Below, in pieces: positions 2,265 through 47,587 of a DNA stretch of 60,975 nucleotides. Numbering within the stretch: position 1 is the first letter of the stretch; each line of letters starts with the position of its first letter. Source of the DNA: Patescibacteria group bacterium. GTDB taxonomy: Bacteria; Patescibacteriota; Minisyncoccia; Minisyncoccales; JAHCRE01. The DNA lies in NCBI GenBank assembly GCA_020148025.1, contig JAHCRH010000002.1, positions 1-60,975 of the forward strand, given 5' to 3'. The notes under the pieces are model-generated. The model did no database searches and was not told the origin of the DNA. It worked only from the letters and a program-made list of their open reading frames with translations. The position numbers were made by a program, and so were the translations under genes.

Positions 2265-2271
2265 TTGGCTT

Positions 2272-4560: not shown

Positions 4561-4568
4561 GATTATAT

Positions 4569-5306
4569 ATGAAAAGAAAGAAAAAATTTAAAAAAGTTCC
4601 ATATCATTTAGTTTTATTCCCTGATGGTAATCGTCGTTGGGCCCGGAAAAGAGGATTACCAGCTCTAGAGGGTCATTCAGCAGGCCGTCGAAATTTTGAA
4701 AGGATTCTTACTCACTGTCAGAAAAGAGGAGTGAAGGTTTTAACTGTCTTTGGGTTTTCAACCGAAAATTGGAAAAGATCAAAAGAAGAGGTAAACTTTT
4801 TAATGAAATTGTTTGAGAGGCATTTATCAAATAAAGAAAGTATAAAAAGACTTCTTAAAGAAAAAGTAAAAGTGAAAATAATCGGCCAGAAAGAAAGATT
4901 ATCAAAATCTCTACAGAAAGTGATTAAAAAAATAGAGAATTTAACCAAGAATAATAAAAAATTCCAGTTAAATTTGGCTGTAAGTTATGGTGGCAGATGG
5001 GATATTTTACAGGCTGTTCAAAGGATTGTTAGGAAGAAAATTCCAGTTAAGAAAATTACTGAAAAACTAATAGAAAAATATCTTACAACTGCTGGTCTTC
5101 CAGCTCCTGACTTGGTCATTCGGGCTGGGGGAGAAAAAAGATTATCTAATTTTGTACTTTGGCAAACAGCCTATTCTGAGCTCTATTTTTCTGAAAAACT
5201 CTGGCCAGATTTTACTGAAAGAGATTTAGATAGAGCCCTTGAAGAATATGCTCGGCGGGAAAGAAGATTTGGCGGAAAGAAAATTAAAAAATATTTAAAA
5301 TCTTAA
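4569..5306 (+). CDS. uppS: Undecaprenyl-diphosphate synthase (cis-isoprenyl transferase)
   Basis: FPDGNRRWARKRGL, FSTENWKR, RAGGEKRLSNFVLWQTAYSELYF. Confidence 0.92.
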   Translation: MKRKKKFKKVPYHLVLFPDGNRRWARKRGLPALEGHSAGRRNFERILTHCQKRGVKVLTVFGFSTENWKRSKEEVNFLMKLFERHLSNKESIKRLLKEKVKVKIIGQKERLSKSLQKVIKKIENLTKNNKKFQLNLAVSYGGRWDILQAVQRIVRKKIPVKKITEKLIEKYLTTAGLPAPDLVIRAGGEKRLSNFVLWQTAYSELYFSEKLWPDFTERDLDRALEEYARRERRFGGKKIKKYLKS

Positions 5307-5644: not shown

Positions 5645-5710
5645 TCTATCGACTTACGAAGTCGATAGATCTTCACCACCGCCCGAGAGTTTTTCTCGGG
5701 GTTTTGTTTT
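5644..5710 (+). terminator. Tandem rho-independent terminators
   Basis: 11-bp stem ATCTATCGACT/AGTCGATAGAT (5644-5670), then CCCGAGA-GTTTT-TCTCGGG followed by a T-run (5682-5710). Confidence 0.7.
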
Positions 5711-21482: not shown

Positions 21483-21512
21483 AAATTACAGGGTTTAAAT
21501 TTGGGTTTAATC

Positions 21513-21521
21513 TGGTATAAT
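21513..21521 (+). promoter_or_regulatory. Extended -10 promoter TGGTATAAT of the MTase gene
   Basis: An exact TGnTATAAT 30 nt upstream of ATG 21552. Confidence 0.5.
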
Positions 21522-21551
21522 GTATTAATAAATAAGACCGCACAAATTAAA

Positions 21552-23456
21552 ATGAACGGGATAGAAAAAGAAATTAATTACTTAATTGACAAATTCGGCA
21601 TAAAAAAAGAAAGGGCAATAATTTTAAGCTACTCTTTGCTCCTAAGAGATTATTTCCTGAATAATCTAGACAAACGGTATATGCCAAGAATTGAAAGTTT
21701 GATAGATTCACAGGTGGGATTTAGGATTGAAGATTATGACATACCTGATTTGATTATTAACGAGAATTTAAAAGAAACCCTAAACAATGGGGGGATAGAT
21801 ATAATAGGAATTTCTTACAATAAAATAATTGATAAAGAGCTAAGAAAGATTTTTGGCAAATTTTATACGCCCATTCCTTTAGTTGAACATGTATTGGATT
21901 CAATAAATTTATCTAAAAAACCGAATGGAACAGTTATGGATTTAGCTTGTGGTGCGGGGGTTTTTCTTTCCGCTGCAGTAAAAAGGTTAATTAGGCTAAA
22001 TTCTAGGCTAAATAATGAGGTTCTGTTAAATAAAATCATAGAACAAATTTATGGAATAGACATTGACGCTACTGCATGCACCTTAGCTAAATTAAGTTTG
22101 TTGGTATCAACTTTTCCTTTGTGGAAAAACATTATTCCCAAAAGAGATTTAGAAATTAAATTCAATATCTTTTGTAAAAATTCGTCACTCATTCCTCAAG
22201 GGCAAGTTTCATTATTTAAAACGGAAAGTAATAAACTCATTGAAAAATTTGACTTTGTTATAGGTAATCCGCCTTATATTGAGGCCAAAAAACTACCCAT
22301 TAAAGATAAAAAGATTTGTAGAAGAAATTTCCCAGATATAGCAAAGGGTGCATTTGATATATATATTTGTTTTATCGGCTTGGGCTTGAATCTTTTAAAA
22401 GAGGGAGGATATTTGGGTTTTGTTTTGCCAAATAAATTTTTAGTAGCGAAATATGCATCCCACATAAGAAAAAAGATTTTAGAAAATTATCACTTAACTG
22501 AAATTTGTGATATATCCAATCTAAAATATTTTGAAGGAACAGATGTTTATCCAATACTTTTAGTCGTTAAAAATAAAAAGGGAAAAGCCAAAATTAAAAC
22601 GATAAGCGGTCTAGAAAACAGGGATATGTTTGAGTCAAAAAAAATCAAATATATTAAAGTTGCACAAGAAAAATATAAATTATTAAATAAAATATTGCCT
22701 TTCTATTGTTTTGAAAAAGAAATTGACAAAAAAATACTATTTAAATTAATAAATGGAAAACAAAATAAATTGAGTGATTTTTTAGAAATTAAAACTACAG
22801 TATCTTTTCATGCTAAAGGACTAAGAGAAAAATATGTATCAAAAGACATAGACTCAAAGTATAGATACAAGTATCTAGGTGGGAAAAGCTATTCAAGGAA
22901 AAATGAAGTAAGAGCTTATCGTGTTGAATGGGATGGATATTATATCAATTATGATAATTTAGTTTTAAACAAAATAAATAATCCACTTCCACCGATTTCT
23001 AATTTCGAAAAGCCCAAAATTATATTCTGCCAGCATGCAAAAAGAATGTTAGCCTATACAGACATAAAAGGAGAGTGGGTCACAAAAGATGTTTTCCCAA
23101 TAGCGTTTCTGAAAGACAATGATGTTACTAAAACTTATTATTATACTGGCTTCTTAAACTCTAAAATTTTTTCTTTTATATATGGGGTAATTTACAAGGG
23201 AATACAAATTAGTGAGGGTTATTTTCATTTTCTCCCCAGCTTCTTGTCAGTAATTCCAGCCCCAGAAGAAAATAAATTAATAATAAAAAAAGTCGCACAA
23301 ATAGTGCAAAAATTACAAAAAAATAAAAGGATAGAAAAAAAATTAACGGAGAAAATTGATAAGCTCTTTTATAATTCTTTTAAATTAACCAAAGATGAAA
23401 TAGCCCGAGTAGAAATATATAACAAAAAATATCTAAACAAGTTTATAAGCCAGTAA
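21552..23456 (+). CDS. N6-adenine DNA methyltransferase (Eco57I/TaqI-like gamma class)
   Basis: FGKFYTP, motif I MDLACGAGVFL, motif IV VIGNPPYIEAKK, and a long C-terminal TRD. The tracked TTG start (21501) is replaced by the first ATG downstream of the promoter. Confidence 0.85.
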   Translation: MNGIEKEINYLIDKFGIKKERAIILSYSLLLRDYFLNNLDKRYMPRIESLIDSQVGFRIEDYDIPDLIINENLKETLNNGGIDIIGISYNKIIDKELRKIFGKFYTPIPLVEHVLDSINLSKKPNGTVMDLACGAGVFLSAAVKRLIRLNSRLNNEVLLNKIIEQIYGIDIDATACTLAKLSLLVSTFPLWKNIIPKRDLEIKFNIFCKNSSLIPQGQVSLFKTESNKLIEKFDFVIGNPPYIEAKKLPIKDKKICRRNFPDIAKGAFDIYICFIGLGLNLLKEGGYLGFVLPNKFLVAKYASHIRKKILENYHLTEICDISNLKYFEGTDVYPILLVVKNKKGKAKIKTISGLENRDMFESKKIKYIKVAQEKYKLLNKILPFYCFEKEIDKKILFKLINGKQNKLSDFLEIKTTVSFHAKGLREKYVSKDIDSKYRYKYLGGKSYSRKNEVRAYRVEWDGYYINYDNLVLNKINNPLPPISNFEKPKIIFCQHAKRMLAYTDIKGEWVTKDVFPIAFLKDNDVTKTYYYTGFLNSKIFSFIYGVIYKGIQISEGYFHFLPSFLSVIPAPEENKLIIKKVAQIVQKLQKNKRIEKKLTEKIDKLFYNSFKLTKDEIARVEIYNKKYLNKFISQ

Positions 23457-24357
23457 AGTTTTCCTCGGTAAATATTTCCTCAAGCCTCTTCATCTCTTCT
23501 TCTCCAATTTTTCCAATGGATTTTAACCATCTCATTAAATAAAAATATTGATTTGGATGCAACATGGGCTTTATTACTCCCTTTAAATTAATTTCTCCTT
23601 TTAAAAACTTAACGATATCGCCTGAAATAACCCCTCTTCCAGCCAAATCTATTGCCATTCTCATTACGTCAACAGAGGTTAAGTTTAAACCTCCTTTTTT
23701 CTTAATATCTGCCTCTATGTCTTTTGGTTCTAATTTCAACAAATCCTTGGGATCCGGAAATCCATTTAAATTTTTATTATAAAATTCAATCTCATGACTA
23801 CGATATGGAAACCAACTTATACCTCGCTCACTCAAAGAACCCGGTGGTAAGTAGACTCCCTCTCTCTTAACACGTTCTTTTGAAACCCATCCACATATGT
23901 ATAATTTCCATTTCTTCTGTCTTGGCGTTCCAGGTAATTCTCCATTTTTGGGGGTTTCTAGGTGCGTCATAAGATAGATGTCAGTATCTAGTTCTCTATC
24001 ATAAACCTGACGGGCGAAAAGATTGTGCTTAGCTTCCCTTGGCATACCATCGCTTCCAGCATATAACTCCTGAAAGGGCCGAATTCCACCCCTACACTTC
24101 ACATCAACTTTGACGCCGCTTTTTAATGGAAAATCAAAACCTTTAGGATGGGTGATGGGGTCTATCTCGGGAAGCCCCAATTCTTTTCTGACAACTATTT
24201 CTGCTAAAGCACCGTAGGTTTGTTCTCTTGGTCTACCGGCTTCTGGTCCCCTTACAAGAACCTTTTCTACAAACTGCACTGCTTTGAGGCGTAATTCGTA
24301 TCCTTTTGGTCCCGCTAGACCGATCTCAATTGGTTTTGGTGTGGAATATTTATACAT
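23443..24357 (-). CDS. Putative PD-(D/E)xK restriction endonuclease partner
   Basis: GFDFPLKSGVKVDVKCRGG fits D...(D/E)xK. The gene is convergent with the MTase gene and overlaps its 3' end by 14 nt. Confidence 0.45.
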   Translation of the reverse strand: MYKYSTPKPIEIGLAGPKGYELRLKAVQFVEKVLVRGPEAGRPREQTYGALAEIVVRKELGLPEIDPITHPKGFDFPLKSGVKVDVKCRGGIRPFQELYAGSDGMPREAKHNLFARQVYDRELDTDIYLMTHLETPKNGELPGTPRQKKWKLYICGWVSKERVKREGVYLPPGSLSERGISWFPYRSHEIEFYNKNLNGFPDPKDLLKLEPKDIEADIKKKGGLNLTSVDVMRMAIDLAGRGVISGDIVKFLKGEINLKGVIKPMLHPNQYFYLMRWLKSIGKIGEEEMKRLEEIFTEENFTGL

Positions 24358-25750: not shown

Positions 25751-26434
25751 CTAAAAGTTTGATGCTTTCTTAAGCCACTGGTCGAATTTACAATCTGGAC
25801 TATGGGGAGGCGGCGTGTTTTTTCTCAAAAGAGTAACTGCGTCTTTAAAAAGTCCTGGGATATCCGAAGGGTTCGTTTCAATTTCATGGAGTTCTTTTCG
25901 AAAAGGTAATCTGTCTTCGAAACCACTTTCTTTATTAACTATATAAAAAGCTAAATAGCCCTTCCGGGGAGTTAAAAAGCCATTTTTTTCTAAAAGAAAA
26001 GTGTAAGTATCCATCTGCAACTGAAAACGATCATACACTTTTGCGACTTTACTACCGGTGGACTTATAATCAAGTGGAGCTAATTTATCTTCGGGAAACT
26101 CTAAAATATCATCAACTGCTCCAAAAAGAGTTGCGTCTAATTCAGAATCATAATAACGTATCCCTACAAAATTACTTCGCCATTGATTTAATAAATCTTG
26201 GTTTGGAAAAAGTTTGGCATTAACATTATTGGCAATAAGCAAAGGATGGGGTTCTCCTTTTGCTCTATACCCATCGAACTCTTGCTTTAAAAGAACGTCA
26301 ACGGCCATATTAAGAGCATAAGGATAAGGTGGCGGCCTTTTGATCCCTTGTCTTTTGTTCAGCCAAAAACAATGAGGGCATTCCAAAAATAAATTTAAAG
26401 AATTAGGCGAAAGCTGAATTGGTTTATTGTTCAT
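25751..26434 (-). CDS. PD-(D/E)xK nuclease family protein (Cas4/RecB-like fold)
   Basis: N-terminal LSPNSLNLFLECPHCFWL; core GAVDDILEF...LAPLDYKS (D ... D-x-K). Confidence 0.6.
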   Translation of the reverse strand: MNNKPIQLSPNSLNLFLECPHCFWLNKRQGIKRPPPYPYALNMAVDVLLKQEFDGYRAKGEPHPLLIANNVNAKLFPNQDLLNQWRSNFVGIRYYDSELDATLFGAVDDILEFPEDKLAPLDYKSTGSKVAKVYDRFQLQMDTYTFLLEKNGFLTPRKGYLAFYIVNKESGFEDRLPFRKELHEIETNPSDIPGLFKDAVTLLRKNTPPPHSPDCKFDQWLKKASNF

Positions 26435-26495
26435 AATAATTATCTATCTTCAAAATAACTTCATTTTTAAAAAAATTCAAGAAAGAAACAAAAAA

Positions 26496-26550
26496 CCGTT
26501 AGTTCCCTACCCTAACGGTTTTCTTTGTCTTGCAAGGTGTATTGTGCGAC
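26496..26550 (+). repeat. Junction repeat J2 (C-family hairpin plus TCTTGCAA-N6-TTGTGCGA site)
   Basis: CCGTTAG-TTCCCTACC-CTAACGG at 26496-26518, then TCTTGCAA GGTGTA TTGTGCGAC at 26528-26550. Segment 26499-26550 matches 30405-30456 outside the 6-nt spacer. Confidence 0.7.
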
Positions 26551-26745
26551 ACTTTTATTGGTTCGAATCCTATCCCTCTTCCCTAATCGGTCTCGAACCC
26601 GTGTTTTAGGGGAAAAATATGGGCTTTTTGAGGCTATCCCAGAATGCCCCTCTCGGTCGGGGTGTTTTAACCTAAAATGAGACAAATGAGACAGTTTAAA
26701 AAGTAATAAAAAATAGAGTTGACTCCATTTTTATTTTTGTTATTT

Positions 26746-26774
26746 TTGACTAAAATATATTGAGGATATATAAT
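26746..26774 (+). promoter_or_regulatory. Consensus promoter of the SIR2-DUF262 operon (TTGACT-17-TATAAT)
   Basis: TTGACT at 26746-26751, exact 17-nt spacer, TATAAT at 26769-26774. The leader is about 100 nt with no obvious SD. Confidence 0.6.
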
Positions 26775-26879
26775 TATTATGATGTAATCAAGAAGGATCT
26801 GTGAATACAACTTACTGGAAAAAAAGGAAAACTACAATTCATATCTTCTATCGATATATTTATTATCCTTCTCCTTTTC

Positions 26880-27872
26880 ATGTATAAGATTGTATATTTA
26901 TTTGGTGCAGGCGCAACTCATGCTGAAGTTGTTAATCTCAGGAAAGATCTTTCTGTAAAATTTCTAAAGGAAAATGGTTTATTGATAAATGATGTTTCTA
27001 AGAGAGTTATTAAAGAAGCGCAAGGTAATTCAAGATATTTAAAAAAGATTAAAATGGTTTCAGCGGCTGAGGGTTCTTTGAACATTGAATTATTGATAAG
27101 TCTGTTTGAAAAAAATCGTATCCCAGACGCCGAGTATAAAACTGACCTCCTAAAAAAATTAGTTAAAGACGATATCCTAGATAAATTAACTGATTATCGA
27201 CTAAAAAGATTTTATTTGCATAAAGCTTTATTAGAACTTCATTCGAAAATCAAAGATAAAGAAAAATTATTTGGTATTATTTCTCTGAATTATGATCATA
27301 TCCTGGATGAAGCATATAAGACTATATTTGAGCATGAACCAAATTACTGTTTTTCTTTAGAAGAATGCAAAAATATCCCTTTATTGAAATTGCATGGTTC
27401 TTTTAATTGGAAGAATATTATAATATACGGAAGAAAAAAGACTGTCCCAATCATTCCTTTTGGAATAGACAAAAATTATTTACAATTACCATATAACTTC
27501 ATTTGGGGTCGTGCAATGGAGATCTTAATAGATTGTGATGTACTTCGAATAATTGGTTGTTCACTCAATCAAAATGATGTTGGACTAATTGACTTACTCT
27601 TTAAAGCGCATCTAGCAAAAGGAAAACCGTTTGAGATTCAAATAATAGATTTCCAAAAAGTCGGTGCATCGATAAAAGGAAACTATGGTTTTTTCCCAGA
27701 AATTATAAAACCAAAAGATCTCGAGGATGCCTTAATAGCCGACGAGTCAATTCATGACCCCAGTAAGGGTGGAAATCCTTTTAAAATATGGTTAAGGGCA
27801 AAAGGGATGAAGATGTTAAAAGAAGAAGTTATTAGAAAAACCAAATATTTGAAAAAAGTTTTTGATTTATAA
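26880..27872 (+). CDS. SIR2-like (SIR2_2 family) protein, stand-alone
   Basis: YLFGAGATHAE (Rossmann GAG), ISLNYDHILDEAY, LLKLHGSFNW (catalytic His), LRIIGCSLNQNDV. No fused TIR, SLOG, STAND or HerA partner domain. Confidence 0.75.
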   Translation: MYKIVYLFGAGATHAEVVNLRKDLSVKFLKENGLLINDVSKRVIKEAQGNSRYLKKIKMVSAAEGSLNIELLISLFEKNRIPDAEYKTDLLKKLVKDDILDKLTDYRLKRFYLHKALLELHSKIKDKEKLFGIISLNYDHILDEAYKTIFEHEPNYCFSLEECKNIPLLKLHGSFNWKNIIIYGRKKTVPIIPFGIDKNYLQLPYNFIWGRAMEILIDCDVLRIIGCSLNQNDVGLIDLLFKAHLAKGKPFEIQIIDFQKVGASIKGNYGFFPEIIKPKDLEDALIADESIHDPSKGGNPFKIWLRAKGMKMLKEEVIRKTKYLKKVFDL

Positions 27873-27889
27873 TCACAGGCATAAAAAAT

Positions 27890-29005
27890 ATGTCAAAAAA
27901 AAATAAGAAGAAAAGAAAAAGCAAATCGGAGAAGAGAAGGAGTACTTTGCTACTTACAGTTAAGGAATTTATTAATAAATATGTCTATCGAATTGATTTA
28001 GATGCAGATTATCAAAGAGAAAAAGTTTGGTCAAAAAAAGAGCAGGAATTACTATTGGATTCGATACTTAGAGATATTGACATACCTAAAATTTATCTTG
28101 CCAAAGTTGAGGGCAATAAACAATTCGATTTTGAATGCATTGATGGAAAACAACGCATGATAACTCTATTAAATTATTTTAAACCAGATCCAAATGAAAA
28201 GAATTCTTTAATAGTTGAGGTTGCAGGAGGGAAATATACTTACAAACAATTAAAAAAAGAATATCCTAAAGCAGCAAAAAAAATTGAAAACTACGAGCTG
28301 ACTTTTATCATTTACAAAAAAATTGATGATGATCTTATCAGAGAAATATTTAGAAGATTACAATTAGGAATTAGACTGAATTCCGGTGAATTATTAAAAA
28401 CTTATACGGGTGCTATTAGAGATTTTATCTACAAAGAAATTGGAAATAAGGGTCCCTTCTTTAGATACACAAAACTATCTGAAAAAAGATTTTCAAGACC
28501 ATTTACCTTAGCTCAAATTTGCATTAATTCATTTAAACGCATAGAAACAGGTGATTTTGTCAGAGCAAGATTAGTAGATATCCAAGATTTTTTCGAAGAT
28601 AATTATAACCTAAAAAAGGACGATGAAAATTTAATTCGAATAAAAAAGGTTCTTAAAATTATGGATGCTGAATTTGGAGAAGATGCTAAAGACATTTCAA
28701 GCAGAGGGATTGCTGTAACAGCATATTTTTTTACTGAGAATTTATATCTAAAAGAGAAAAAAGGTCTTATTCCAAAATTTGTTGAATTCTATCTTAAATT
28801 ACTAGATGAAATCAAACATAATATGAAACTAATAAAGAGTTATGAAAAACCGGAAAATATTAATTTAATGGAGGAGTTCCATAAATATATCTTACAAGCT
28901 TCAGTTGAACCATACTCCATTCGAAGAAGACATAACTTCCTCAAAAAGGCTTTTGATTATTACTTAAATCCAGAGACAAAAGGAAAAATTATTGGTAGTA
29001 AATAA
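27890..29005 (+). CDS. DUF262 (ParB/Srx-like, GmrSD N-terminal type) protein without the DUF1524/HNH half
   Basis: DADYQREKVWSKKEQELLLDSILRDIDIPKIYL and IDGKQRMITLLNYF (the DGQQR motif). The C-terminal ~170 aa are helical and unassigned. Confidence 0.75.
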   Translation: MSKKNKKKRKSKSEKRRSTLLLTVKEFINKYVYRIDLDADYQREKVWSKKEQELLLDSILRDIDIPKIYLAKVEGNKQFDFECIDGKQRMITLLNYFKPDPNEKNSLIVEVAGGKYTYKQLKKEYPKAAKKIENYELTFIIYKKIDDDLIREIFRRLQLGIRLNSGELLKTYTGAIRDFIYKEIGNKGPFFRYTKLSEKRFSRPFTLAQICINSFKRIETGDFVRARLVDIQDFFEDNYNLKKDDENLIRIKKVLKIMDAEFGEDAKDISSRGIAVTAYFFTENLYLKEKKGLIPKFVEFYLKLLDEIKHNMKLIKSYEKPENINLMEEFHKYILQASVEPYSIRRRHNFLKKAFDYYLNPETKGKIIGSK

Positions 29006-29009
29006 TTTT

Positions 29010-30254
29010 TTACGAATTTTTCCAAATAATGATGCTTTCTCTTGAGGGCTTTCTTTTAAATTTTTTCATTTGCTGAGCACTATTTCCTCTGTATCTGGCA
29101 ACAAATATGATATCAGTTGATAATCCTGTTTGTTCACCTATCTCAGCAAGTATTTCATCAACAGGAATATTAACACCTCCAAAACGAACATTGCTTATAA
29201 CAAGCCCTATCTTCCCGTTCTTTTTTAGATGTTTTTGCATCTGCAATAATGAAAGATACATATCTTCAAAATATCCTTCAATCATCTCGGGAATTTTTGA
29301 ATTGTTCAAACCTGCCTTTTTAACCTTAGTAATTATTTCGTCAATGGTTGAAGGTTTTTTATAACCATTAGACTTAAACTTCTTTCTTGCTTCGACATGA
29401 GATCTAAGTGTGTCATATCTGATTTGTTTTAATTCATCATTATCCCCAACAAAATTAAATATTAATTCAAGCCCATATATTCTCGTATAATCATGCCTAT
29501 TTGGATATGGTGGGGAAGTAATTATTGCATCAAATTTTCTCTTTGTTGAAAATCTTCTTGAATCTGATATTTTTGCATTTACCTTTGCATTAGTGAATTT
29601 TGAATTATCATTGAATTCTTCAACATCTTGAATCATTACTTCAACTTTTGATAGAAATTTCGGATATACTTCTTTTCCAGAAACATTTTTTTCATCAATT
29701 CGTAAAAAACCTCCCGCCTTTGAAGTATTGCTTACCGATTCAAGTATGCTTAGTAATCCCAACATATAGAAATCTCTCACTTTGAGATCTCGAATCATAT
29801 TAATCTTGTACTTTAGATAAAGTAATTCGTCTTTTACATCGTTACTAAAAGCCTTCTCTATAATTTTAATATCGGGCAAATAAGTATTCTTTACTGTTAA
29901 TTTACCATTTCTATTAAAATTCTTAAGTCGTTGTCTTAGTTTACAGGGCTCATACGTTCTCGTTTTGACGTTAGATAAAAATACTGAAAAAGGAAGTATA
30001 TCAAAACCTTTTGAATTAATACCCAACTCTTTGCATGCAAGTAATGTTGTGCCACTACCACAGAAAGGGTCTAGAACCCATGAACCCTTACTAAGTTTGA
30101 ATTCTTCAATTAGCTTTTCAACCAACCCTTTCGAGTAGCTATGTTTAAAGACATGCCAGTTATATATTGGTTTACCGCGGTCACTAAAAGGAGATATGAG
30201 TGGCCCATACTCATTTGTCTTCATAATAAGAGGAGCGATAGCCATATGTAACAA
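29010..30254 (-). CDS. N4/N6 DNA methyltransferase (motif I before motif IV)
   Basis: VLDPFCGSGTTLLA (motif I) ... AIITSPPYPNRHDY (motif IV). Its stop is 4 nt from the stop of the DUF262 gene (convergent). Confidence 0.8.
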   Translation of the reverse strand: MLHMAIAPLIMKTNEYGPLISPFSDRGKPIYNWHVFKHSYSKGLVEKLIEEFKLSKGSWVLDPFCGSGTTLLACKELGINSKGFDILPFSVFLSNVKTRTYEPCKLRQRLKNFNRNGKLTVKNTYLPDIKIIEKAFSNDVKDELLYLKYKINMIRDLKVRDFYMLGLLSILESVSNTSKAGGFLRIDEKNVSGKEVYPKFLSKVEVMIQDVEEFNDNSKFTNAKVNAKISDSRRFSTKRKFDAIITSPPYPNRHDYTRIYGLELIFNFVGDNDELKQIRYDTLRSHVEARKKFKSNGYKKPSTIDEIITKVKKAGLNNSKIPEMIEGYFEDMYLSLLQMQKHLKKNGKIGLVISNVRFGGVNIPVDEILAEIGEQTGLSTDIIFVARYRGNSAQQMKKFKRKPSRESIIIWKNS

Positions 30255-30404
30255 TAATGTTTTTTAAAAGACTTAAAGAGTGAGCGAGAGAGCTTGATAG
30301 AAAATAAAAAATGGAATTTCATCTAACAAGTTTTAAACACACCCCATAAAAACTTGTTTTAAAATCGACCTTTTTAAAATTGCCCAGCGACGGGCTTTTT
30401 GAAA

Positions 30405-30456
30405 TTAGTTCCCTACCCTAACGGTTTACTTTGTCTTGCAAGATACCTTGTGCGAC
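30405..30456 (+). repeat. Junction repeat J3 (truncated C hairpin plus TCTTGCAA-N6-TTGTGCGA site)
   Basis: TTAGTTCCCTACCCTAACGGTTTACTTTGTCTTGCAAGATACCTTGTGCGAC. The 5' arm of the hairpin is replaced by a B-family hairpin (30382-30395). Confidence 0.7.
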
Positions 30457-30509
30457 GCTTTCCGTTATAGTAAATACCGTATGACATCAAATTGGATTAC
30501 CCCCCTTTT

Positions 30510-31808
30510 TTATGGGGACGATAATAAATCTCTAAGCTCTAGGGCATCATCAATGTTAAATTTCTTTTTACAGTAAGGGCATTCCATTGTTCTATCCAAC
30601 GATGACTTTCTTTTATTATGTAATTCTCTAGTGACCTCTCTTCTACAGAATGGACAGAAGAATTGTTCTCCACTAGGGTAGATGGCTCCTGAACCAGCTA
30701 TACCTAAATCACCGGGCCTAAAAGCTCTTGTAATATCTTCGCCCCTAATACCACTAACGCCTGTATCGTAGATTCTCTCAAAACCTCTATAATCACCGGG
30801 CCTAAAAGCTCTTGTAATATCTTTGCCCCTAATACCACTAACGCCTGTATCGTAGATTCTCTCAAAACCTCTATCGGGGCTGATAACTCCAACGCCAGCA
30901 TCAGAGATTCTATCAAGTCTGAAAACACCAGTATCAGGTCTGTCATATTCACTTCTCTCTTTAATTTCTTTTAAAGCTTGCTTTCTAACTTTCTTTTTGA
31001 TCTTTACATATTTTCCAGCTAATTCCATAAAATTATCTAATCGATACATATAAAAACTCATTTTAGTCTTTTCTACAAATTCATTGATAAGCTCTGGTCT
31101 TGGACCAATAATCTGATTTTGAGAAATTAACCACCAGTCTTCTTCCTTTTCGTCAGTAATCAAAATAACGCCTTTGTTTTCACTCGCAGCTTTATCAATC
31201 ATTTGTTTCCACATTACTAAGTCTCCATACTTTCTATTTCCTCTTTTTTCTTTCCTATCCTTGTAACCAGGTGGCACCTTTTCCTCGTACCTTTCCTTTC
31301 CTTCTCGGTAAATCTTTTTAAGATCCTTGCTAGAATACGGAGAACCAACTTTAGATTTAAATAGGCTAGAAATTTTTCTAATAATTTTGTCGTCGCTCAG
31401 TAGTTTCTTATACTTTTTCTTGCTAGCGTTTAACTCTTTTCTAATCTCTTTAAAAATCTCAGAAAGATCTTCCATAGTATCTTCCCTTATAAGATGACGC
31501 TTCCTGCGGTCTTTAAAGTCTTGTTCAATTTGATTAAGGGACTTAAAGATTAACTCGTGGGACTTTAACTGTTTTTCTATTACGTTTAGGCGATTCTTAA
31601 GACATTCTGAAGAAGCCTGATGAGACAACCAAATTCTTTCCTTAATTTTTGGCAAGGTTAAGATCCGAATAAATTCTTCTCTAGTTTTATCGGAGTACCT
31701 ATAAAGGTTCAATAAAACACTAGCATCGAAAGTAAAAATACAGCTATTCCATAAGCTTTTGAATTGTTTTTCGGATAGCTTGAAATATCCAGGAAAAGTT
31801 TTTTTCAT
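30510..31808 (-). CDS. PIN-like (DUF4935-type) nuclease-domain protein with a 28-aa tandem repeat and C-terminal zinc ribbon
   Basis: N-terminal FTFDASVLLNLYRYS, later ITDEKEEDWW. Repeats GFERIYDTGVSGIRG(K/E)DITRAFRPGD occur twice. C-terminal CPFC...CPYC. Confidence 0.6.
   Translation of the reverse strand: MKKTFPGYFKLSEKQFKSLWNSCIFTFDASVLLNLYRYSDKTREEFIRILTLPKIKERIWLSHQASSECLKNRLNVIEKQLKSHELIFKSLNQIEQDFKDRRKRHLIREDTMEDLSEIFKEIRKELNASKKKYKKLLSDDKIIRKISSLFKSKVGSPYSSKDLKKIYREGKERYEEKVPPGYKDRKEKRGNRKYGDLVMWKQMIDKAASENKGVILITDEKEEDWWLISQNQIIGPRPELINEFVEKTKMSFYMYRLDNFMELAGKYVKIKKKVRKQALKEIKERSEYDRPDTGVFRLDRISDAGVGVISPDRGFERIYDTGVSGIRGKDITRAFRPGDYRGFERIYDTGVSGIRGEDITRAFRPGDLGIAGSGAIYPSGEQFFCPFCRREVTRELHNKRKSSLDRTMECPYCKKKFNIDDALELRDLLSSP
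30708..30875 (-). repeat. 84-bp tandem duplication inside the PIN-like gene
   Basis: Units 30708-30791 and 30792-30875 are 82/84 identical. A degenerate third unit follows (about 30876-30950). Confidence 0.9.
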
Positions 31809-32225: not shown

Positions 32226-33092
32226 TTAGAACTTGTGCTTCCCGTGACTTATTAAATCTACAAGGCTAGAAGGACTCCCGTCCCAAAAAATTACATTAGT
32301 CAATTTGTGTAAATTAGCCTTTGTAGAATATGATAGTTTACTTATACCTATATCTTTTAGTTCAAAAATGGGCTTCTTAGAGAACTTAAATCTATGTGGC
32401 CACTTTTCGCTTGAACCGTGTTCCCATCTCTCTTTTTCATTATAATAATAACCCTCTGTAACTCTAAATACAATAATTTTCTCAATTTTGCCCTTGAATT
32501 TATTAAATGGAACTCTGCCACCAGTTACTGCCCTCCCCTTTCTTCTCAATGGATACCATGGCCCAATAAATGCAATCAAATCCTCTTTTTTTATATCTCT
32601 AAACCTATTTAATTGTCTGAAATTCTTAGGTACGCCCCATGTTTGTTTTTCAATCTCCTCATAAAAATGAATGTTTGCAGATTTATTTAAATAATAAAAC
32701 CATAATTTAGGAAATTTTCTCTCAGAAATTTCTTTAACTACTTCTTTCAATGACTCGGATAATATTCTATTAGAATTTTTGCTAAACCAATTTTCAAAGT
32801 CTTTTCTCTTAATTATTATTTGTTCAAGTTCAAAATTTTGATTTTGCTCAAAAACAATGATAAAGCCATTATCTTCCTTTAAAACTGAAATGTCATGATT
32901 AAAATCACTAGTTTTCCATTCAATTTCTGCTGGAACTTCGTTTCCGTCTTCCAGTAAACAATAAACATCTGGATATTGGTCAAAAGTAGGATTAAATTTA
33001 GATTTAATTATCTGTAGACCTCTGATAGAATATTTTTTACAATTTTCTACCCAATACTTCTGTAGTATTTTTTCATCAACCCATTTTGGCAT
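32226..33092 (-). CDS. PD-(D/E)xK nuclease-like N-domain fused to a PUA/EVE-like C-domain (candidate modification-dependent nuclease)
   Basis: YPDVYCLLEDGNEVPAEIEWK (PD ... ExK). C-terminal WFYYLNKS..TWGVPKNFRQLNRFRDIKKEDLIAFI ... IEKIIVFRVTEGYYYNE ... WPHRFKF resembles EVE/ASCH-type beta-barrel signatures. Confidence 0.4.
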   Translation of the reverse strand: MPKWVDEKILQKYWVENCKKYSIRGLQIIKSKFNPTFDQYPDVYCLLEDGNEVPAEIEWKTSDFNHDISVLKEDNGFIIVFEQNQNFELEQIIIKRKDFENWFSKNSNRILSESLKEVVKEISERKFPKLWFYYLNKSANIHFYEEIEKQTWGVPKNFRQLNRFRDIKKEDLIAFIGPWYPLRRKGRAVTGGRVPFNKFKGKIEKIIVFRVTEGYYYNEKERWEHGSSEKWPHRFKFSKKPIFELKDIGISKLSYSTKANLHKLTNVIFWDGSPSSLVDLISHGKHKF

Positions 33093-33851: not shown

Positions 33852-34664
33852 TTATCCAATTCCTCGATTTGTTAGGCATACTTTATTTATCAGGCACTTA
33901 TTACATTTAGGTTTAGCGCTACAAACATCCCTTCCAAAATGCCAGAATATTCTATCCAATTCGCCGGGAGAGTAACCGCTTTTCTCTGATAATCTAATGA
34001 TTAGATTCCTAAGGAAAATATAATTTTTCTCATTCCCCGGATTAGTCCCTAAGTCGATATCACCGTACCCATAAACTAATAAACCAGTCCTACTTAGAAC
34101 CCTAACTACATGGAGGTCATTTGCGGCATAGAGCTTTGAAAAACAACTAAGTGCTAAATCTCTTACCTTAAAGCCAATATTTAGGATATTTAAAAATGGG
34201 TCGTCAGGAAAATTCTCTTTATATTTCTTTTCTGCTTCTTTAAAATATCGTTCCCAACCCTTTTTATATTTTTTAAATAATACCTTTTTAGCTCCTAAAA
34301 ATACTTTTGTTCCACTTTTCACTCCCCATCTATACTTTGCTTTTTTCAGAACGACTTTAGCTTTATCCTCGATGATATCGTTAAAAGTTTTAAATTCCGC
34401 ATTCATTTGTCGGTAAATATACGCTCCTCTCTCGCCCGGCATTGCTCTCATTAAAAGGTTCATAGTAAAGGTATTAAATATTTGAATGGGTTTTCCTTTC
34501 CTGTTCTGAGATAGTTGTTTTAGATAGGATTTTCTACAGTCTTCGATGGTTTGCCTTCGCTTTATATAACCTAAAGAGGGATGGATTTCTTCTGAACCAA
34601 AAGTAGATTCTATCTTCAGAATTGGAGAGATTATTTTATTTACATTAGGAAGTATCAACTTCAT
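33852..34664 (-). CDS. HhH-GPD / endonuclease III-like DNA glycosylase with Fe-S cluster loop and an atypical N-terminal extension
   Basis: IGFKVRDLALSCFSKLYAANDLHVVRVLSRTGL (HhH plus catalytic Asp context). FWHFGRDVCSAKPKCNKCLINKVC gives the C-x5-C-x2-C-x5-C cluster. Confidence 0.65.
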   Translation of the reverse strand: MKLILPNVNKIISPILKIESTFGSEEIHPSLGYIKRRQTIEDCRKSYLKQLSQNRKGKPIQIFNTFTMNLLMRAMPGERGAYIYRQMNAEFKTFNDIIEDKAKVVLKKAKYRWGVKSGTKVFLGAKKVLFKKYKKGWERYFKEAEKKYKENFPDDPFLNILNIGFKVRDLALSCFSKLYAANDLHVVRVLSRTGLLVYGYGDIDLGTNPGNEKNYIFLRNLIIRLSEKSGYSPGELDRIFWHFGRDVCSAKPKCNKCLINKVCLTNRGIG

Positions 34665-34742: not shown

Positions 34743-37691
34743 CTATCTCATTTCTTTCGTAGCTTTTAATTCTTCTACTAAAGCGTCATAAACTTTAGGT
34801 AACCATTCTTCAATCTGTGCATCAGAAAATCCTAAAGTTTGTAATATATTTTTATCCAATTCAACTCTTGCTGGGAATCTCTTTTCTAATTGTTCAATAA
34901 TAGAAGGGAATTCTACATTTGTTATTTTGTCAAAGGTTTTTAATAACGATTTCCTTTCGTTTTCGCTTAATCTATCAACATTAATAACATCAATAAGCGC
35001 CAAATCTGGCTGCATTATTTCAATAAGCTGTCCTGTGGTCTCACTTTTATTTAAAAACAACTGAACCAAATAGAGAATGCTATTAAGATATAATGATAAG
35101 ATTTTACTCTTTTTAGGGTTATCAATCTTAAATATCAGAAATTTATTGGTTGGAACAAATTTTGTATCAGAATAAACTGCTAAAAGATGAGTGTTGTCAG
35201 AATACAAATTAAATCTCCGGGGAATAGCTAAATTGGTTTTCGTATGCTCAGACTTATCTTTTACAAAATTCCAGTCGAATTTCCTTTTTTTATTCCAATT
35301 TGAAAATTTAATTATAGAATCAGAATCCTTAAAATCTGATTGTATTAAATAATCATGTTTCTCGTTTAATGAAATGGATTTTATTCCTGTGATAGTTTTC
35401 AATGCAGGAACGGTTTTATTCTTATCTATTCTATATCTAAACTTAGGTATGGATTTAATTTGAAATGAAATATTATTATTTTCTTCCCTTAAAAGAAGAA
35501 AGGCTCTTTTTTCCCTGCTTTTATCAGAGGGTCTTATTAAAAACACTATCTGGCTTAAGCCTGCGGGGTAATCTGGGAAACCGTATTGCAACCAGTCTTT
35601 TTCAATTTTAATCATTTTATCTTTAAATTGTTTGCATTGAGCTAAAAAGTTATCGATAACTCTCTTCCGTTTTAATGCCGAAAAGGCTAAAAAATACATT
35701 AAATTATACTTGTTTTCTAGTAACTTCTTATGTTCTATGAATTCAATTTCAAATTCCTCACACGAATACTGATAACCTGCTTTTGGATTAATACTCTTTA
35801 TTTCTTTAATCAGATTTCTTGCATCTATATCTGATAAATCTCTTATAGATTTTTTGAGAAATATTATTCCTGTTAAATCTTTGGGTTTCGGTTTCCTCTT
35901 TTGGGTAATGAAGAGTATGTCTCTAAATGCGGCGCCTTCACTAAAAGCTATCTCTCGAGTTGTTTTCAGAATATATTGAGTGTAATAATTCTTAAGGATA
36001 TAATCCCTTATTTGCTGAGTGGCTTCTCCTCGAGCTATATTTATCGGAATAACTAATCCCATCCTTCCTTTTTCTTTTAATAAATAATCTGCAAGTGCCA
36101 AGAAGAATCCCCAGAAATTTATTTGATTGCCGCATATTTTTATTAAATGCTGGAAATCTTTTAAATGTTCTTTGTATTCTTTTGGCATCTTGTGTCTATC
36201 GGAAAATGGCGGATTCATTAAAACTATATCTAGAGGCTTTAATATAAATTTCTCTCCTTTCCCACCTTCGAGCCCCACAGCGCCAGCACGCTCCAATACT
36301 TTTTCTTTGCCAAAAATAGTAAATTGGGCTAGAGTCTGAAATGGTTCAATAGGAATTCCCTCTTTGGTAAACTCTGGGCTTGATAATCTACTTTGAAGCT
36401 CTAATGAGTCCTGACAGCCTACCCTTACTTTATTTGTTATTGCATTAGGATTTTGAGCAGCAAGATTAACAGCTGTAAGATGAGAAGCGAATGGCATTAT
36501 GTCAATTCCTGTTATTTGCTCTTCTACAAATTTTTTATGAAGATTTTTCAATTGCAAAGAGGAATTGTCCTGTTTTTTTTGTTTATACAGATTAAATTTT
36601 CTCTTATAAGCGGCGACTAAAAGCGTTCCCGAACCACAGGCGGGGTCAATGACTGTATTGTCCCATTTATCAATTGTTAAGCCGGCGAGAATGTCTGCAG
36701 CTATAGGGTTCGTATAAAAAGCTGCTAACACTTTTCTTGTAGTTGGGGGTAATAATTCGTGATAAAGTCTTCCCAATAAATCATGGCTTACAAATTCTGG
36801 CTTTAGAATATTTATTGCTTTAATAATTTCTCTAACCTCTGCTACAATTTCTTTTTGATTTGGTAATCTAGAAGCTAGATCTACTGAATAAATCGCTTTA
36901 TAATTAATGTCAGTAATTTTTTTGAAGTAGCCCCTGAGGCTCTCGATAGAAGTTATTTTACCTTCATCTAACTTTTCTATTTTTCCTGTGGTCTCAGAAA
37001 ATACACGATAAAAAAGTATTTGGTTGCTGAGAAGATAGGGAATCAAATCAATAGCAGCAAGTTGAAGGTTCTCTATAGCCTTTTTAGTCTTTTCTATTTG
37101 TCCTAAACCTAAGAATAAATCGAATCTTCCAACCACTATATCTATTAATTCACTAATTTCCTTTTTGGTTCTTTGTGCTCTTAAAATCTCGGAAATTATA
37201 CCTATGCCAGTTCTTAATGTCTCGATAACAAGTTTAAATGATGTTTTCGTCTCTTTAGTGGCCAGGAATTCATCTATGGAAAATTTAAGCCTTGGGAATA
37301 ACTCCGAAGCCTTTACCGATGAAAAACTCTCATTAAAAAAATCAGAGAGGAAAATTGCGTTAACTTTACTTTCTGTCGTTAGGTGTCTTACTATCTCGGG
37401 CTTTATAAATAATGGAGTTCTTATTTGGGCCGGATACTCTATGACTAAAATACCGTCTCCTTTTACCTTCTGACAATAACCCCAAGCCTGGGTAATGCCC
37501 CGTAAAAGATTCTTTAAATATCTTCCAGTCCCTATTTTGATCTCGGCTATAAATCTTTTTGAATTGTAGAAACACTCAAAATCAAAATAGCCATGTCTAA
37601 TCCCTATAGCAGAGATGTTGTCAAAACCATTTGCTTTTAGTAGCTTTGATATTTCAGGATATAGGCTTTGTTCCGTTATCCTTTTCTTCAT
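34743..37691 (-). CDS. Type IIG/IIL-like fused restriction endonuclease-N6-adenine methyltransferase (982 aa)
   Basis: N-terminal FDFECFYNSKRFIAEIKIG (D-x12-ExK), motif I IDPACGSGTLL, motif IV VLMNPPFS, and a long C-terminal TRD-like region. Confidence 0.7.
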   Translation of the reverse strand: MKKRITEQSLYPEISKLLKANGFDNISAIGIRHGYFDFECFYNSKRFIAEIKIGTGRYLKNLLRGITQAWGYCQKVKGDGILVIEYPAQIRTPLFIKPEIVRHLTTESKVNAIFLSDFFNESFSSVKASELFPRLKFSIDEFLATKETKTSFKLVIETLRTGIGIISEILRAQRTKKEISELIDIVVGRFDLFLGLGQIEKTKKAIENLQLAAIDLIPYLLSNQILFYRVFSETTGKIEKLDEGKITSIESLRGYFKKITDINYKAIYSVDLASRLPNQKEIVAEVREIIKAINILKPEFVSHDLLGRLYHELLPPTTRKVLAAFYTNPIAADILAGLTIDKWDNTVIDPACGSGTLLVAAYKRKFNLYKQKKQDNSSLQLKNLHKKFVEEQITGIDIMPFASHLTAVNLAAQNPNAITNKVRVGCQDSLELQSRLSSPEFTKEGIPIEPFQTLAQFTIFGKEKVLERAGAVGLEGGKGEKFILKPLDIVLMNPPFSDRHKMPKEYKEHLKDFQHLIKICGNQINFWGFFLALADYLLKEKGRMGLVIPINIARGEATQQIRDYILKNYYTQYILKTTREIAFSEGAAFRDILFITQKRKPKPKDLTGIIFLKKSIRDLSDIDARNLIKEIKSINPKAGYQYSCEEFEIEFIEHKKLLENKYNLMYFLAFSALKRKRVIDNFLAQCKQFKDKMIKIEKDWLQYGFPDYPAGLSQIVFLIRPSDKSREKRAFLLLREENNNISFQIKSIPKFRYRIDKNKTVPALKTITGIKSISLNEKHDYLIQSDFKDSDSIIKFSNWNKKRKFDWNFVKDKSEHTKTNLAIPRRFNLYSDNTHLLAVYSDTKFVPTNKFLIFKIDNPKKSKILSLYLNSILYLVQLFLNKSETTGQLIEIMQPDLALIDVINVDRLSENERKSLLKTFDKITNVEFPSIIEQLEKRFPARVELDKNILQTLGFSDAQIEEWLPKVYDALVEELKATKEMR

Positions 37692-40176: not shown

Positions 40177-40557
40177 GATAGCAAAGACCTTTATTTGTTA
40201 AAATGCCCTTATTTGGGCATTTTTTATTTCATGGAATATGTCTTGCGAGACTATGTTTAGATATAAAAAATATCCCGAGAGTTCTTCTCTTGGTCGTTCC
40301 ATTTTTGGCAAATCGCGAATAGTAAATTTTCTCATAAATTTAATTCATTTTCGCATAAAAAATCGGCTTTTTCAAGCCGATTTTTTTGTCAATTTTGGCA
40401 ATTTTTGACACCTCCCTAAACGTCGCACAAATGTCTCGTGAGACGATATTTACGGAGAAATAAAACGCCCGAGAGAAAAACTCTCGGGCGGGAGGGCGGA
40501 GATAAAAAAAAGGGGCATTAAGCCCCGAAAATTTGAAGAAAAAAAGAAAGAAAAGAG

Positions 40558-41730: not shown

Positions 41731-41907
41731 CTCCTTTTCTATTATTTCTGAAAGGCGTACCTCTCAGATAAATCATTTTCACATAATCCCACCTTTTTGT
41801 CAATAGAAACACCCGAGAAAAACCCTCGGGTTAATTTTTTATACCTAATTCTTGTAAAATATATGTACTTTGAACAATTAAATAAAAAAGACTGAGTTAT
41901 GCTCAGT

Positions 41908-42231: not shown

Positions 42232-42364
42232 CTTTGGAACCTCATTTTCAAACAGCTATTTTCTTTATATCAAATATTTATTAGCATATCAAGAGAATCA
42301 AGCCCCGAGAGTTTTTCTCGGGCGAGACGACCAGAAATAAAAAACCCACTTGAAAAAAGTGGGG

Positions 42365-47465: not shown

Positions 47466-47587
47466 CTCGTCCTCCTGTATTCAGATTTTAAAGGACTTTC
47501 TATTAAGAATAATTTACCGCAAATTCTTTATTTTGTCAATCAAGCCCCGAGAAAAACTCTCGGGGTTTTATTTCGCTTAACTGTCCT

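Follow-up and report, generated by a model that had tools for sequence, protein, structure and literature searches.

The question raised by this locus is whether a SIR2-like gene, a DUF262 gene and an adjacent DNA methyltransferase gene, located in a defence island within the 60,975-nt stretch of DNA that was analysed (hereafter the window), act together as one immune system, and by what means. The three ORFs (Table 1) make up a unit of about 3.5 kb, in which the SIR2 and DUF262 genes are 17 nt apart (27873–27889) and the convergent DUF262 and methyltransferase genes have their stop codons separated by 4 nt (29006–29009). The promoter-like site in front of the SIR2 gene matched the consensus at 11 of 12 positions and was the top-scoring site within 26300–30600; as a class, promoter-like matches showed no enrichment in this AT-rich DNA (21 found vs. 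19.5 expected). The ORFs, the two gaps, the protein motifs and the TTGACT-17-TATAAT site had all been listed in an initial annotation of the region, and each was found again in the sequence. Neighbours in the island, as identified by Pfam and PADLOC, were an Eco57I-type methylase, a 982-aa methylase fusion, a PIN_8 protein and a Cas4-like nuclease, and no endonuclease was recognisable in the unit itself from the ORF list, Pfam or PADLOC.

Table 1. Features of the SIR2-DUF262-methyltransferase locus and its flanks (positions in the window).
Feature	Position	Strand	Remarks
Promoter-like site, TTGACT-17 nt-TATAAT	26746–26774	+	About 105 nt 5′ of the SIR2 start codon
SIR2-like protein gene	26880–27872	+	ORF1, 330 aa, stand-alone; putative NAD+-consuming effector
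DUF262 protein gene	27890–29005	+	ORF2, 371 aa; putative DNA/methylation sensor
Amino-methyltransferase gene	29010–30254	-	ORF3, 414 aa, TTG start
Upstream copy of dispersed hairpin repeat	26483–26555	+	AAAACCGTTAG-TTCCCTACC-CTAACGGTTTT plus 3′ extension; flank, probably outside the system
Downstream repeat copy	30405–30461	+	Flanked by the start of the methyltransferase gene and the 3′ end of PIN_8

The SIR2-DUF262 pair was found in more than 10 bacterial phyla and in one archaeal MAG (Altiarchaeia), all carriers being uncultured genomes. The SIR2 gene preceded and adjoined the DUF262 gene in 39 of 40 species-level genome loci, and in 80 metagenome loci it was present wherever the contig extended upstream of DUF262. 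When only loci flanked by 1.3 kb or more on each side were counted, a DNA methyltransferase gene was located no more than 2.5 kb from the pair in all 57 (34/34 from genomes and 23/23 from metagenomes). In the reverse direction, 5 of 5 sampled methyltransferase homologues on long contigs, including that of the Altiarchaeia archaeon, adjoined a SIR2-like and DUF262 pair. Gene order and layout were kept even in distant pairs (29–34% identity), with overlapping stop and start codons in 4 of 5. The conserved neighbours were DUF262 and methyltransferases only, the flanks being otherwise unrelated across loci, and the placement of the methyltransferase gene varied among related loci (convergent, co-directional or divergent). 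The initial annotation made its case conditional on SIR2 and a nuclease-less DUF262 protein being conserved neighbours, and asked whether a methyltransferase is nearby; both held across this sample. By comparative genomics, a three-gene system is strongly supported. No SIR2-DUF262 fusion was seen, the 150 best family representatives all being stand-alone proteins of 92–458 aa, too short for a fusion. No copy turned up in the viral contigs and plasmids that were scanned. Decay of the unit was noticed in three loci, two of which had a SIR2 gene without the His region (L034 and L038) and one of which had no DUF262 (L002), with the methyltransferase intact in all three; restriction genes decay likewise while the modification gene stays. 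Among loci with good flanks, none combined an intact pair with a methyltransferase that was clearly dead, and apparent frameshifts, which may be assembly errors, occurred only in MFD-labelled assemblies (L009, L027 and L030).

The match of the SIR2 protein to Pfam SIR2_2 (PF13289) exceeded the cut-off only marginally (25.7 vs. 24.5 bits), and the same match is precomputed for many of its homologues. Alignment of 20 homologues revealed that G9-A10-G11-A12-T13, N137 and D139 were invariant and H172 (KLHGS) nearly so; these loop and catalytic motif residues were also retained in relatives at 29–44% identity. For the AF2 model (pLDDT 87, pTM 0.89), the top Foldseek matches were SIR2-HerA (E 3e-7), DSR2, SPARSA, ThsA and sirtuins, the likeness to defence SIR2s being at the fold level (TM ~0.5). 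Both the SIR2_2-type assignment and the catalytic Asn and His proposed in the initial annotation agree with these data. Searches of PDB chains with the sequences and family profiles of the SIR2 and DUF262 proteins gave nothing meaningful, and fold comparison alone worked; as no sequence-level match to a solved SIR2 was obtained, the catalytic residues were assigned by motif and fold and not by residue-level alignment. PADLOC returned weak generic SIR2/Aga_SIR2 matches (E >= 1.5e-4), and NCBIfam had no model for either the SIR2 or the DUF262 protein. Judging from the modelled fold, the output of the SIR2 protein is likely to be NAD+ hydrolysis.

The DUF262 protein matched Pfam GmrSD_N/DUF262 (PF03235, 6e-15), and its motifs DADYQRExxW, DGKQR and FRRLQLGxRLN were invariant among 20 homologues. 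It is composed of a ParB-like DUF262 NTPase domain and a helical C-terminal domain, the C-terminal half being all-helical in the structure model, and the fold search returned SspE (closest), CTP-bound ParB, Noc and BrxU, all as weak matches (E ~2e-3). In PADLOC, residues 19–357 aligned with positions 48–381 of the 385-position NsnA profile (2.8e-22), PD-T4-2_A matched more weakly (2.7e-12), and a REBASE-derived Type II REase model, PDLC03418, matched the N-terminus (4.3e-07). Neither a DUF1524 domain (Pfam) nor a nuclease fold (fold search) was detected in this protein; the PF03235 call and the missing DUF1524/HNH half were thereby borne out, but such an absence is less unusual than it may seem, since DUF262 proteins lacking DUF1524 have already been described in Menshen (NsnA), PD-T4-2 and Dazbog (PMC12065111, PMC10952713).

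The methyltransferase gave matches to Pfam N6_N4_Mtase (7e-15) and PADLOC MTase_II PDLC03224 (3.6e-83), together with a weak motif-region match to mad2. Its motif I, DPFCGSGTT, lies near the N-terminus and its motif IV, SPPY, at about residue 247; the latter was kept in 37 of 39 window-family methyltransferases near SIR2-DUF262 pairs. The methyltransferases beside the pair fell into two unrelated families, one window-like and the other beta-class. Furthermore, 22 of the 57 loci contained a classical restriction enzyme as well, the genes frequently running M-R-SIR2-DUF262 in one direction, a 235-aa ORF occupied the endonuclease position in 1 further locus, and 33 loci, like the window, had no recognisable endonuclease. 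In the latter, the pair stands where the R component would be. Window-like methyltransferases co-occurred only with BsoBI-family endonucleases (Pfam 5.7e-135) and beta-class methyltransferases only with XhoI-family endonucleases (Pfam 1.3e-66). The BsoBI-type site is CYCGRG, of which the XhoI-type site, CTCGAG, is a subset. This XhoI/BsoBI-type R-M link, the main clue at this locus, was absent from the initial annotation. The identity of DUF262 proteins was 64.0% between the two methyltransferase classes and 64.7% and 70.2% within them, and that of SIR2 proteins was 54.1% between and 54.3% and 59.7% within, so that neither protein diverged further between the classes than inside them. Since the pair is accompanied by two methyltransferase families and by endonucleases for CYCGRG and its subset CTCGAG, it appears to be tied to one DNA site and not to one partner protein. 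From the endonucleases of sibling loci, the sole source of this assignment, we infer that the methyltransferase targets CTCGAG or CYCGRG, the mark being probably N4-methylcytosine; the window enzyme is 28–30% identical to the methyltransferases paired with BsoBI-like enzymes. Avoidance of the site was looked for as well: both CYCGRG and CTCGAG were over-represented in the window, partly owing to CCCGAG...CTCGGG hairpin stems, and across related loci (976 kb) the depletion of CTCGAG was only mild (O/E 0.71–0.78, rank 6–13 of 64).

The SIR2-DUF262 pair was claimed by no known system in PADLOC, and no description of SIR2 paired with DUF262 was found in the literature searched, which is in line with its earlier placement outside the named systems. 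From its gene content, the pair with its methyltransferase looks like an undescribed R-M-like immune system. It resembles Type II R-M (XhoI, CTCGAG; BsoBI/AvaI, CYCGRG) in that a dedicated amino-methyltransferase with its own site stands in tight linkage with a partner that is potentially toxic, the order of the genes is variable, the R side decays while M stays, and siblings hold true XhoI/BsoBI-family endonucleases beside the same methyltransferase families; it differs in that the unit in the window is devoid of an endonuclease and has SIR2 and a ParB-like NTPase, neither with a nuclease fold, in the R position. With Menshen (NsnABC) it shares a DUF262 protein that aligns nearly end to end with NsnA, a ParB-DUF262 protein with a helical DNA-binding domain and without DUF1524 (PMC12065111), but here the partner is SIR2 and the methyltransferase is obligatory. 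Neither the NsnB ABC ATPase nor the NsnC inPIN/BECR effector was found in the window or among the conserved neighbours of the 40 loci. In SspE and in GmrSD/BrxU, as proposed here, a DUF262 NTPase domain reads the modification state of DNA and controls an effector, and Ssp has its modification enzymes in linkage with this sensor (PMC12065111, PMC10952713). The DUF262 fold of the window protein is similar to those of SspE, GmrSD and BrxU, but their DUF1524/HNH nuclease is missing from it, and methylation by a single methyltransferase stands in the place of the phosphorothioation of SspABCD-SspE. GmrSD and BrxU have modified DNA as their target and, to our knowledge, no linked methyltransferase. 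The SIR2 fold with glycine-rich loop, Asn/Asp and His is common to SIR2-HerA, DSR2, SPARSA and ThsA, whereas the present unit has a separate ParB-like protein as putative sensor and lacks both a large sensor domain and any partner of the HerA, Argonaute, SLOG or TIR kind, and its self-recognition would be by methylation; PADLOC found no match among the neighbours to the partners of known SIR2 systems (TIR/SLOG, DSR sensor, HerA and short Argonaute), to Dzb proteins of Dazbog or to the PD-T4-2 partner. BREX, DISARM and MADS also combine methyltransferase self-marking with a non-canonical restriction arm, using much larger gene sets of unrelated proteins, and we know of none of them that uses SIR2 and DUF262.

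We propose that the three proteins form one R-M-like system in which unmethylated DNA triggers NAD+ hydrolysis by SIR2, a reading to which we give about an even chance of being right. By this proposal, 1) the methyltransferase would mark host DNA at a specific site (CTCGAG or CYCGRG), 2) the DUF262 protein would act as an NTPase switch of the ParB type and, with its DNA-binding helical domain, read the methylation of this site, 3) on unmethylated, foreign DNA it would activate the co-translated SIR2, presumably by contact, and 4) SIR2 would hydrolyse NAD+ and the infected cell would be arrested. More tentatively, with a confidence somewhat short of even, the loci may represent a widespread R-M family that works without DNA cutting, in which a sequence-specific, methylation-sensitive ParB-type NTPase at unmethylated CTCGAG/CYCGRG-type sites switches on a SIR2 NADase, and which replaces, or is stacked on, XhoI/BsoBI-type endonucleases sharing its methyltransferase.

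The effect of methylation could run opposite to the above proposal, since the DUF262 domain of SspE, the closest fold match, is stimulated by modified self DNA (PMC12065111), its NTPase responding to phosphorothioate (PMC12065111, PMC10952713). By analogy, the methylated self site would activate the DUF262 protein and the pair would act on DNA devoid of the mark, making the methyltransferase a required co-factor instead of an antidote. The strict co-occurrence of the methyltransferase fits this equally well, but in the few decayed loci it is SIR2 or DUF262 that is gone and the methyltransferase that remains, as would be expected of a toxic R partner, and an intact pair next to a methyltransferase that was clearly dead was seen in no good-flank locus; we consider this direction unlikely. 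It is also conceivable, but distinctly unlikely, that the pair carries out a true DNA-targeting restriction, with the ParB/Srx-fold protein as a nickase or SIR2 as an ADP-ribosyltransferase of DNA or protein, and not bulk NAD+ depletion. Some ParB/Srx proteins (e.g. Osa) are DNases and some sirtuins are ADP-ribosyltransferases; in addition, the pair replaces XhoI/BsoBI-type endonucleases beside the same methyltransferases, and the match of PDLC03418 to the DUF262 N-terminus points the same way. This chemistry is opposed by the lack of a nuclease domain in Pfam and fold searches and by the fold matches of the SIR2 protein, the closest of which are all NADase effectors.

Since the gene cluster also includes an endonuclease in 22 of the 57 loci, it may be that the pair is an add-on and not the R component. 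As an accessory or guard of an XhoI/BsoBI-type R-M system, it would sense inhibition or cleavage products, XhoI- and BsoBI-type cleavage both leaving 4-nt 5′ overhangs, with no methylation reading of its own. However, the window and 33 of the 57 loci hold no recognisable endonuclease, and the pair, highly conserved as it is, would need to be a guard for two unrelated families of endonucleases and methyltransferases. As the pair swaps freely between the two methyltransferase families, the guarding of a protein seems unlikely, and we regard the accessory or guard role in general as very unlikely. That independent systems merely cluster here, the methyltransferase being an orphan or belonging to another system, would suit the defence-island setting of the window, but is strongly disfavoured, to the point of being nearly negligible, by the adjacency seen from the pair (57/57) and from the methyltransferase (5/5) in many phyla with unrelated flanks.

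If SIR2 is indeed switched on at unmethylated sites as we propose, methylation-based self/non-self discrimination would be joined to abortive infection by NAD+ depletion, two pillars of immunity usually treated apart, and ParB-like DUF262 domains would gain a defined function, that of reading ordinary base methylation in a sequence-specific manner. Many orphan-looking methyltransferases in environmental genomes would be accounted for as well. The predicted CTCGAG/CYCGRG site makes the hypothesis directly testable, and the system is compact and easily transplanted; a methylation-gated NADase could also serve as a tool.

The initial annotation further described the unit as bracketed by direct repeats and suggested that it moves as a cassette. 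The direct repeat is real, 26499–26555 and 30405–30461 being 89% identical over 57 nt. It is a hairpin with a 9-nt loop and GTTAG...CTAAC arms, unlike an integron attC, and is unrelated to the sole tRNA gene, tRNA-Lys at 180–254. Of the initial interpretation, the conserved triad, its place outside known systems and the catalytic residues stand, whereas the repeat-bracketed mobile cassette was abandoned, as related loci place the methyltransferase differently and the repeat, being dispersed in five copies, does not specifically bracket the SIR2-DUF262-methyltransferase unit. The five copies of the hairpin core are at 11893, 15506, 21296, 26499 and 30405, all on the + strand.

The SIR2-like and DUF262 genes of the window were separated by 17 nt, and the DUF262 gene converged with the DNA methyltransferase gene, with the two stop codons 4 nt apart; the three ORFs and both gaps matched the coordinates of the initial annotation exactly. 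Pfam also placed the SIR2-like and DUF262 proteins in the families proposed there, the former marginally. The Pfam match of the methyltransferase was restricted to the surroundings of motif I, and DPFCGSGTT was located near the N-terminus with SPPY at about residue 247, which is consistent with a permuted motif order. The sigma-70-like site described at first as a textbook promoter was present, but such sites were no more frequent in the region than in shuffled sequence, which makes it a plausible, not a proven, promoter.

Positions of the features described (window coordinates unless a locus is named)
Feature	Position	Strand	Remarks
SIR2-like ORF, 330 aa	26880-27872	+	Pfam SIR2_2, 25.7 bits vs 24.5 cut-off (marginal pass)
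DUF262 ORF, 371 aa	27890-29005	+	Pfam GmrSD_N/DUF262, 6e-15
Methyltransferase ORF, 414 aa	29010-30254	-	Pfam N6_N4_Mtase, 7e-15
Sigma-70-like site TTGACT-17-TATAAT	26746-26774		Candidate promoter upstream of SIR2 gene; 11/12 positions, region's best
Hairpin copies	11893, 15506, 21296, 26499, 30405	+	Stem AAAACCGTTAG/CTAACGGTTTT, loop TTCCCTACC
235-aa ORF between beta-class methyltransferase and SIR2	L004 6151-6858; L074 3160-3864		One contig

Scanning of one genome per species yielded 40 loci, distributed among Acidobacteriota, Nitrospirota, Bacteroidota, Betaproteobacteria, Omnitrophota, Desulfobacterota-like bacteria, Thermodesulfobacteriota, Verrucomicrobiota, Patescibacteria/Saccharibacteria, Dormiibacterota, Melainabacteria and FCPU426. 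A DUF262 homologue directly followed the SIR2-like gene in 39 of them, and clustering of the neighbouring ORFs revealed only two further conserved families, both DNA methyltransferases: MT_A, resembling the window enzyme (about 410-480 aa), and MT_B, a classical beta-class N6_N4_Mtase (about 337 aa, SPPY then DPFMGTGTT) matching PDB 2zie/TTHA0409 at 6e-104. An independent scan of metagenome contigs added 80 loci, with the gene picture unchanged. When the count was limited to pairs flanked on either side by at least 1.3 kb, 34/34 genome loci and 23/23 metagenome loci had a gene for MT_A or MT_B within 2.5 kb, bearing out the co-occurrence suggested for the window genes. The order SIR2-DUF262 was constant, and the methyltransferase had four placements (upstream co-directional, upstream divergent, downstream convergent as in the window, and downstream co-directional). 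A few decayed loci had lost the DUF262 gene (L002, the one exception among the 40) or the His-172 region of SIR2 (L034 and L038) yet retained the methyltransferase, as is the case for restriction genes. All carriers found were metagenome-assembled or single-cell genomes, and no copy of the pair was present on the plasmids and viral contigs scanned, which may account for screens of cultured strains having missed the system.

In a reverse test, five homologues of the window methyltransferase on long contigs (60-71% identical), one of them in an Altiarchaeia archaeon, all adjoined a SIR2-like and GmrSD_N pair; where the partner had no Pfam SIR2 match, SIR2 was recovered by profile comparison (5e-81 and 1.2e-38). 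A full HMM search of the wider SIR2 family gave 126 clusters at E <= 1e-30, all stand-alone, with no fusion proteins among them. In the five distant members examined (29-34% identical to the window SIR2), a DUF262 protein invariably followed SIR2, the stop and start codons overlapped in four, and an MT_A methyltransferase adjoined four, the fifth contig (L125) stopping before any neighbour. Since both the reverse test and the distant relatives keep the layout, the triad is a real, old unit and no accident of the window.

In many loci the methyltransferase and the pair had a fourth gene between them or next to them, and this always encoded a BsoBI-family endonuclease in MT_A loci (Pfam PF09194, 5.7e-135) and an XhoI-family endonuclease in MT_B loci (PF04555, 1.3e-66), a correlation with zero exceptions among 120 loci. 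The known cleavage sites are C^YCGRG for BsoBI and AvaI and C^TCGAG for XhoI and PaeR7I (REBASE, Pfam family definitions), so that the XhoI-type site is a subset of the BsoBI-type one. The pair was no more divergent between MT_A- and MT_B-linked loci than within these classes (DUF262, 64.0% identity between vs 64.7% and 70.2% within; SIR2, 54.1% vs 54.3% and 59.7%). With two unrelated methyltransferase and two endonuclease families beside one conserved pair, the DNA site would be the sole common factor, and the most economical interpretation is that what matters to the pair is whether this site is methylated, not contact with a particular methyltransferase. Motif IV was SPPY in 37/39 MT_A and 37/37 MT_B enzymes; this motif usually points to N4-cytosine methylation, a rule with exceptions, and such methylation is thus favoured for both families.

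The SIR2-like family was tight (853 matches, typically 55-65% identical), with G9-A10-G11-A12-T13, N137 and D139 invariant and K170-L-H172-G-S nearly invariant. The AlphaFold model was confident (pLDDT 87, pTM 0.89), and its closest structures were the SIR2 subunit of SIR2-HerA (E 3e-7, TM about 0.5), then DSR2, SPARSA and ThsA, which share the SIR2 fold with it at the fold level, and then sirtuins. A search against solved structures gave no sequence-level match, so that the catalytic residues are assigned from motif and fold. In the DUF262 family (920 matches, mean column identity 72%), the motifs DADYQRExxW, DGKQR and FRRLQLGxRLN were all invariant. In the DUF262 model, a ParB/Srx-like N-terminal domain precedes an all-helical one, with fold matches to SspE, CTP-bound ParB, Noc, BrxU and KorB (E about 2e-3), and no nuclease domain was detectable by profile and fold searches. 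With PADLOC, residues 19-357 aligned with Menshen NsnA (2.8e-22) and, more weakly, PD-T4-2_A. This architecture was already named ParB-DUF262 plus ParBDB in the Menshen study (PMC12065111); nuclease-less DUF262 proteins were thus previously known, namely from Menshen, Dazbog and PD-T4-2 (PMC10952713).

No recognisable endonuclease was present in the window unit. Of the 57 well-flanked loci, 4 had a BsoBI-type enzyme, 18 an XhoI-type enzyme, 2 (from one contig sampled twice) the 235-aa ORF in endonuclease position, and 33 nothing recognisable there. The 235-aa ORF, without Pfam or PADLOC match, fills the slot held elsewhere by XhoI-like endonucleases and may represent an unrecognised CTCGAG-type endonuclease family. 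Where the endonuclease is missing, the pair fills the position of the restriction component in a restriction-modification unit; that the pair is instead an accessory or guard of classical XhoI/BsoBI systems, which do accompany it in some loci, seems quite improbable.

In the best-supported model, which joins the observed architecture and conservation to a predicted CTCGAG or CYCGRG target site, sign of methylation effect, complex and NADase chemistry, the methyltransferase would mark host DNA, the ParB-type NTPase (DUF262) with its helical DNA-binding domain would read the site, and DUF262 on unmethylated DNA would switch on its SIR2 partner, which would consume NAD+. A SIR2-DUF262 complex is suggested by the overlapping stop and start codons. 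The opposite sign, an SspE-like licensing in which the methyl mark activates the DUF262 sensor, agrees with the SspE fold match and is possible, if unlikely. Somewhat more doubtful is a different chemistry, with the ParB/Srx fold nicking DNA or SIR2 ADP-ribosylating.

PADLOC (2023) assigned the pair to no system, consistent with the candidate undescribed module of the initial annotation; NCBIfam held no model for either protein, and our literature search returned no paper pairing SIR2 with a DUF262 or ParB-like protein. The Menshen survey of DUF262 neighbourhoods comprised only GmrSD, PD-T4-2, Dazbog, SspE and Menshen (PMC12065111). Marking of self DNA by methylation, DUF262 sensors and SIR2 effectors are each already known singly; their combination appears to be without earlier description in PADLOC 2023, NCBIfam and the literature searched.

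The unit had been proposed to move as a cassette bracketed by repeats. A 57-nt direct repeat on both flanks was real, but its hairpin core (AAAACCGTTAG-TTCCCTACC-CTAACGGTTTT) occurred in five copies within 20 kb, in one orientation and between unrelated gene groups, and the flanks differed in related loci of other genomes; cassette movement was thus not evidenced and the idea was rejected. The repeat, of which the last three copies have a common longer 3' extension (about 55 nt), appears to be a dispersed element of the REP or terminator type and could act as a bidirectional terminator. A fragment resembling a tRNA T-arm (TTGGTTCGAATCCTAT...) was noticed at 26556-26585, directly after the repeat copy that precedes the SIR2 gene; neither ARAGORN nor Rfam called a tRNA there, and the fragment may be the remnant of an old integration site.

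The window is chromosomal and contains genes for tRNA-Lys, CTP synthase, adenylosuccinate lyase and Glu/Gln-tRNA synthetase. The unit lies inside a defence island (about 21-38 kb) that also includes an Eco57I/TaqI_C-type methylase, a 982-aa methylase fusion, a PIN_8 protein and a Cas4-like nuclease. The first of these is an N6-adenine methylase of 651 aa (PADLOC MTase_II, 3e-117), and a convergent 304-aa ORF overlapping it by 14 nt, with no Pfam, PADLOC or NCBIfam match, is a candidate uncharacterised restriction endonuclease; the two genes together span 21501-24357. The 982-aa protein (34743-37691, -) has a central N6_Mtase/MmeI_Mtase/Eco57I region and a long N-terminal part matched by no model, and is possibly a Type IIG/IIL-like enzyme; the neighbouring ORFs 32226-33092 and 33852-34664 had no family matches. 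At L122, a locus with a distant SIR2-DUF262 pair, the region upstream of the pair (1443-4982) encodes an MmeI/Eco57I/TaqI_C-type enzyme of 1093 aa that includes a DUF7814 domain, followed by a 78-aa zinc-ribbon-like ORF, with a truncated window-like methyltransferase on the opposite side. The stand-alone Cas4-like PD-(D/E)XK nuclease gene (25751-26434, -; PDDEXK_1 6.7e-10, weak Cas4 matches) is divergent from the SIR2 operon, and the ORFs examined included no CRISPR-Cas genes. The PIN_8 gene (30510-31808, -) contains an 84-nt tandem duplication (30707-30874, 99% identical) that keeps the frame perfectly and thereby duplicates 28 residues (...GFERIYDTGVSGIRG[K/E]DITRAFRPGD...) within the C-terminal region of the protein, which ends in a zinc-ribbon-like CxxC...CxxC. 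CYCGRG occurred 38 times in the window vs 21 expected, a count inflated by CCCGAG and CTCGGG, which often pair across 7-9 nt to form short hairpins (5682-5700, 40468-40488, 41812-41830, 42304-42322 and 47546-47564), probably terminator stems.
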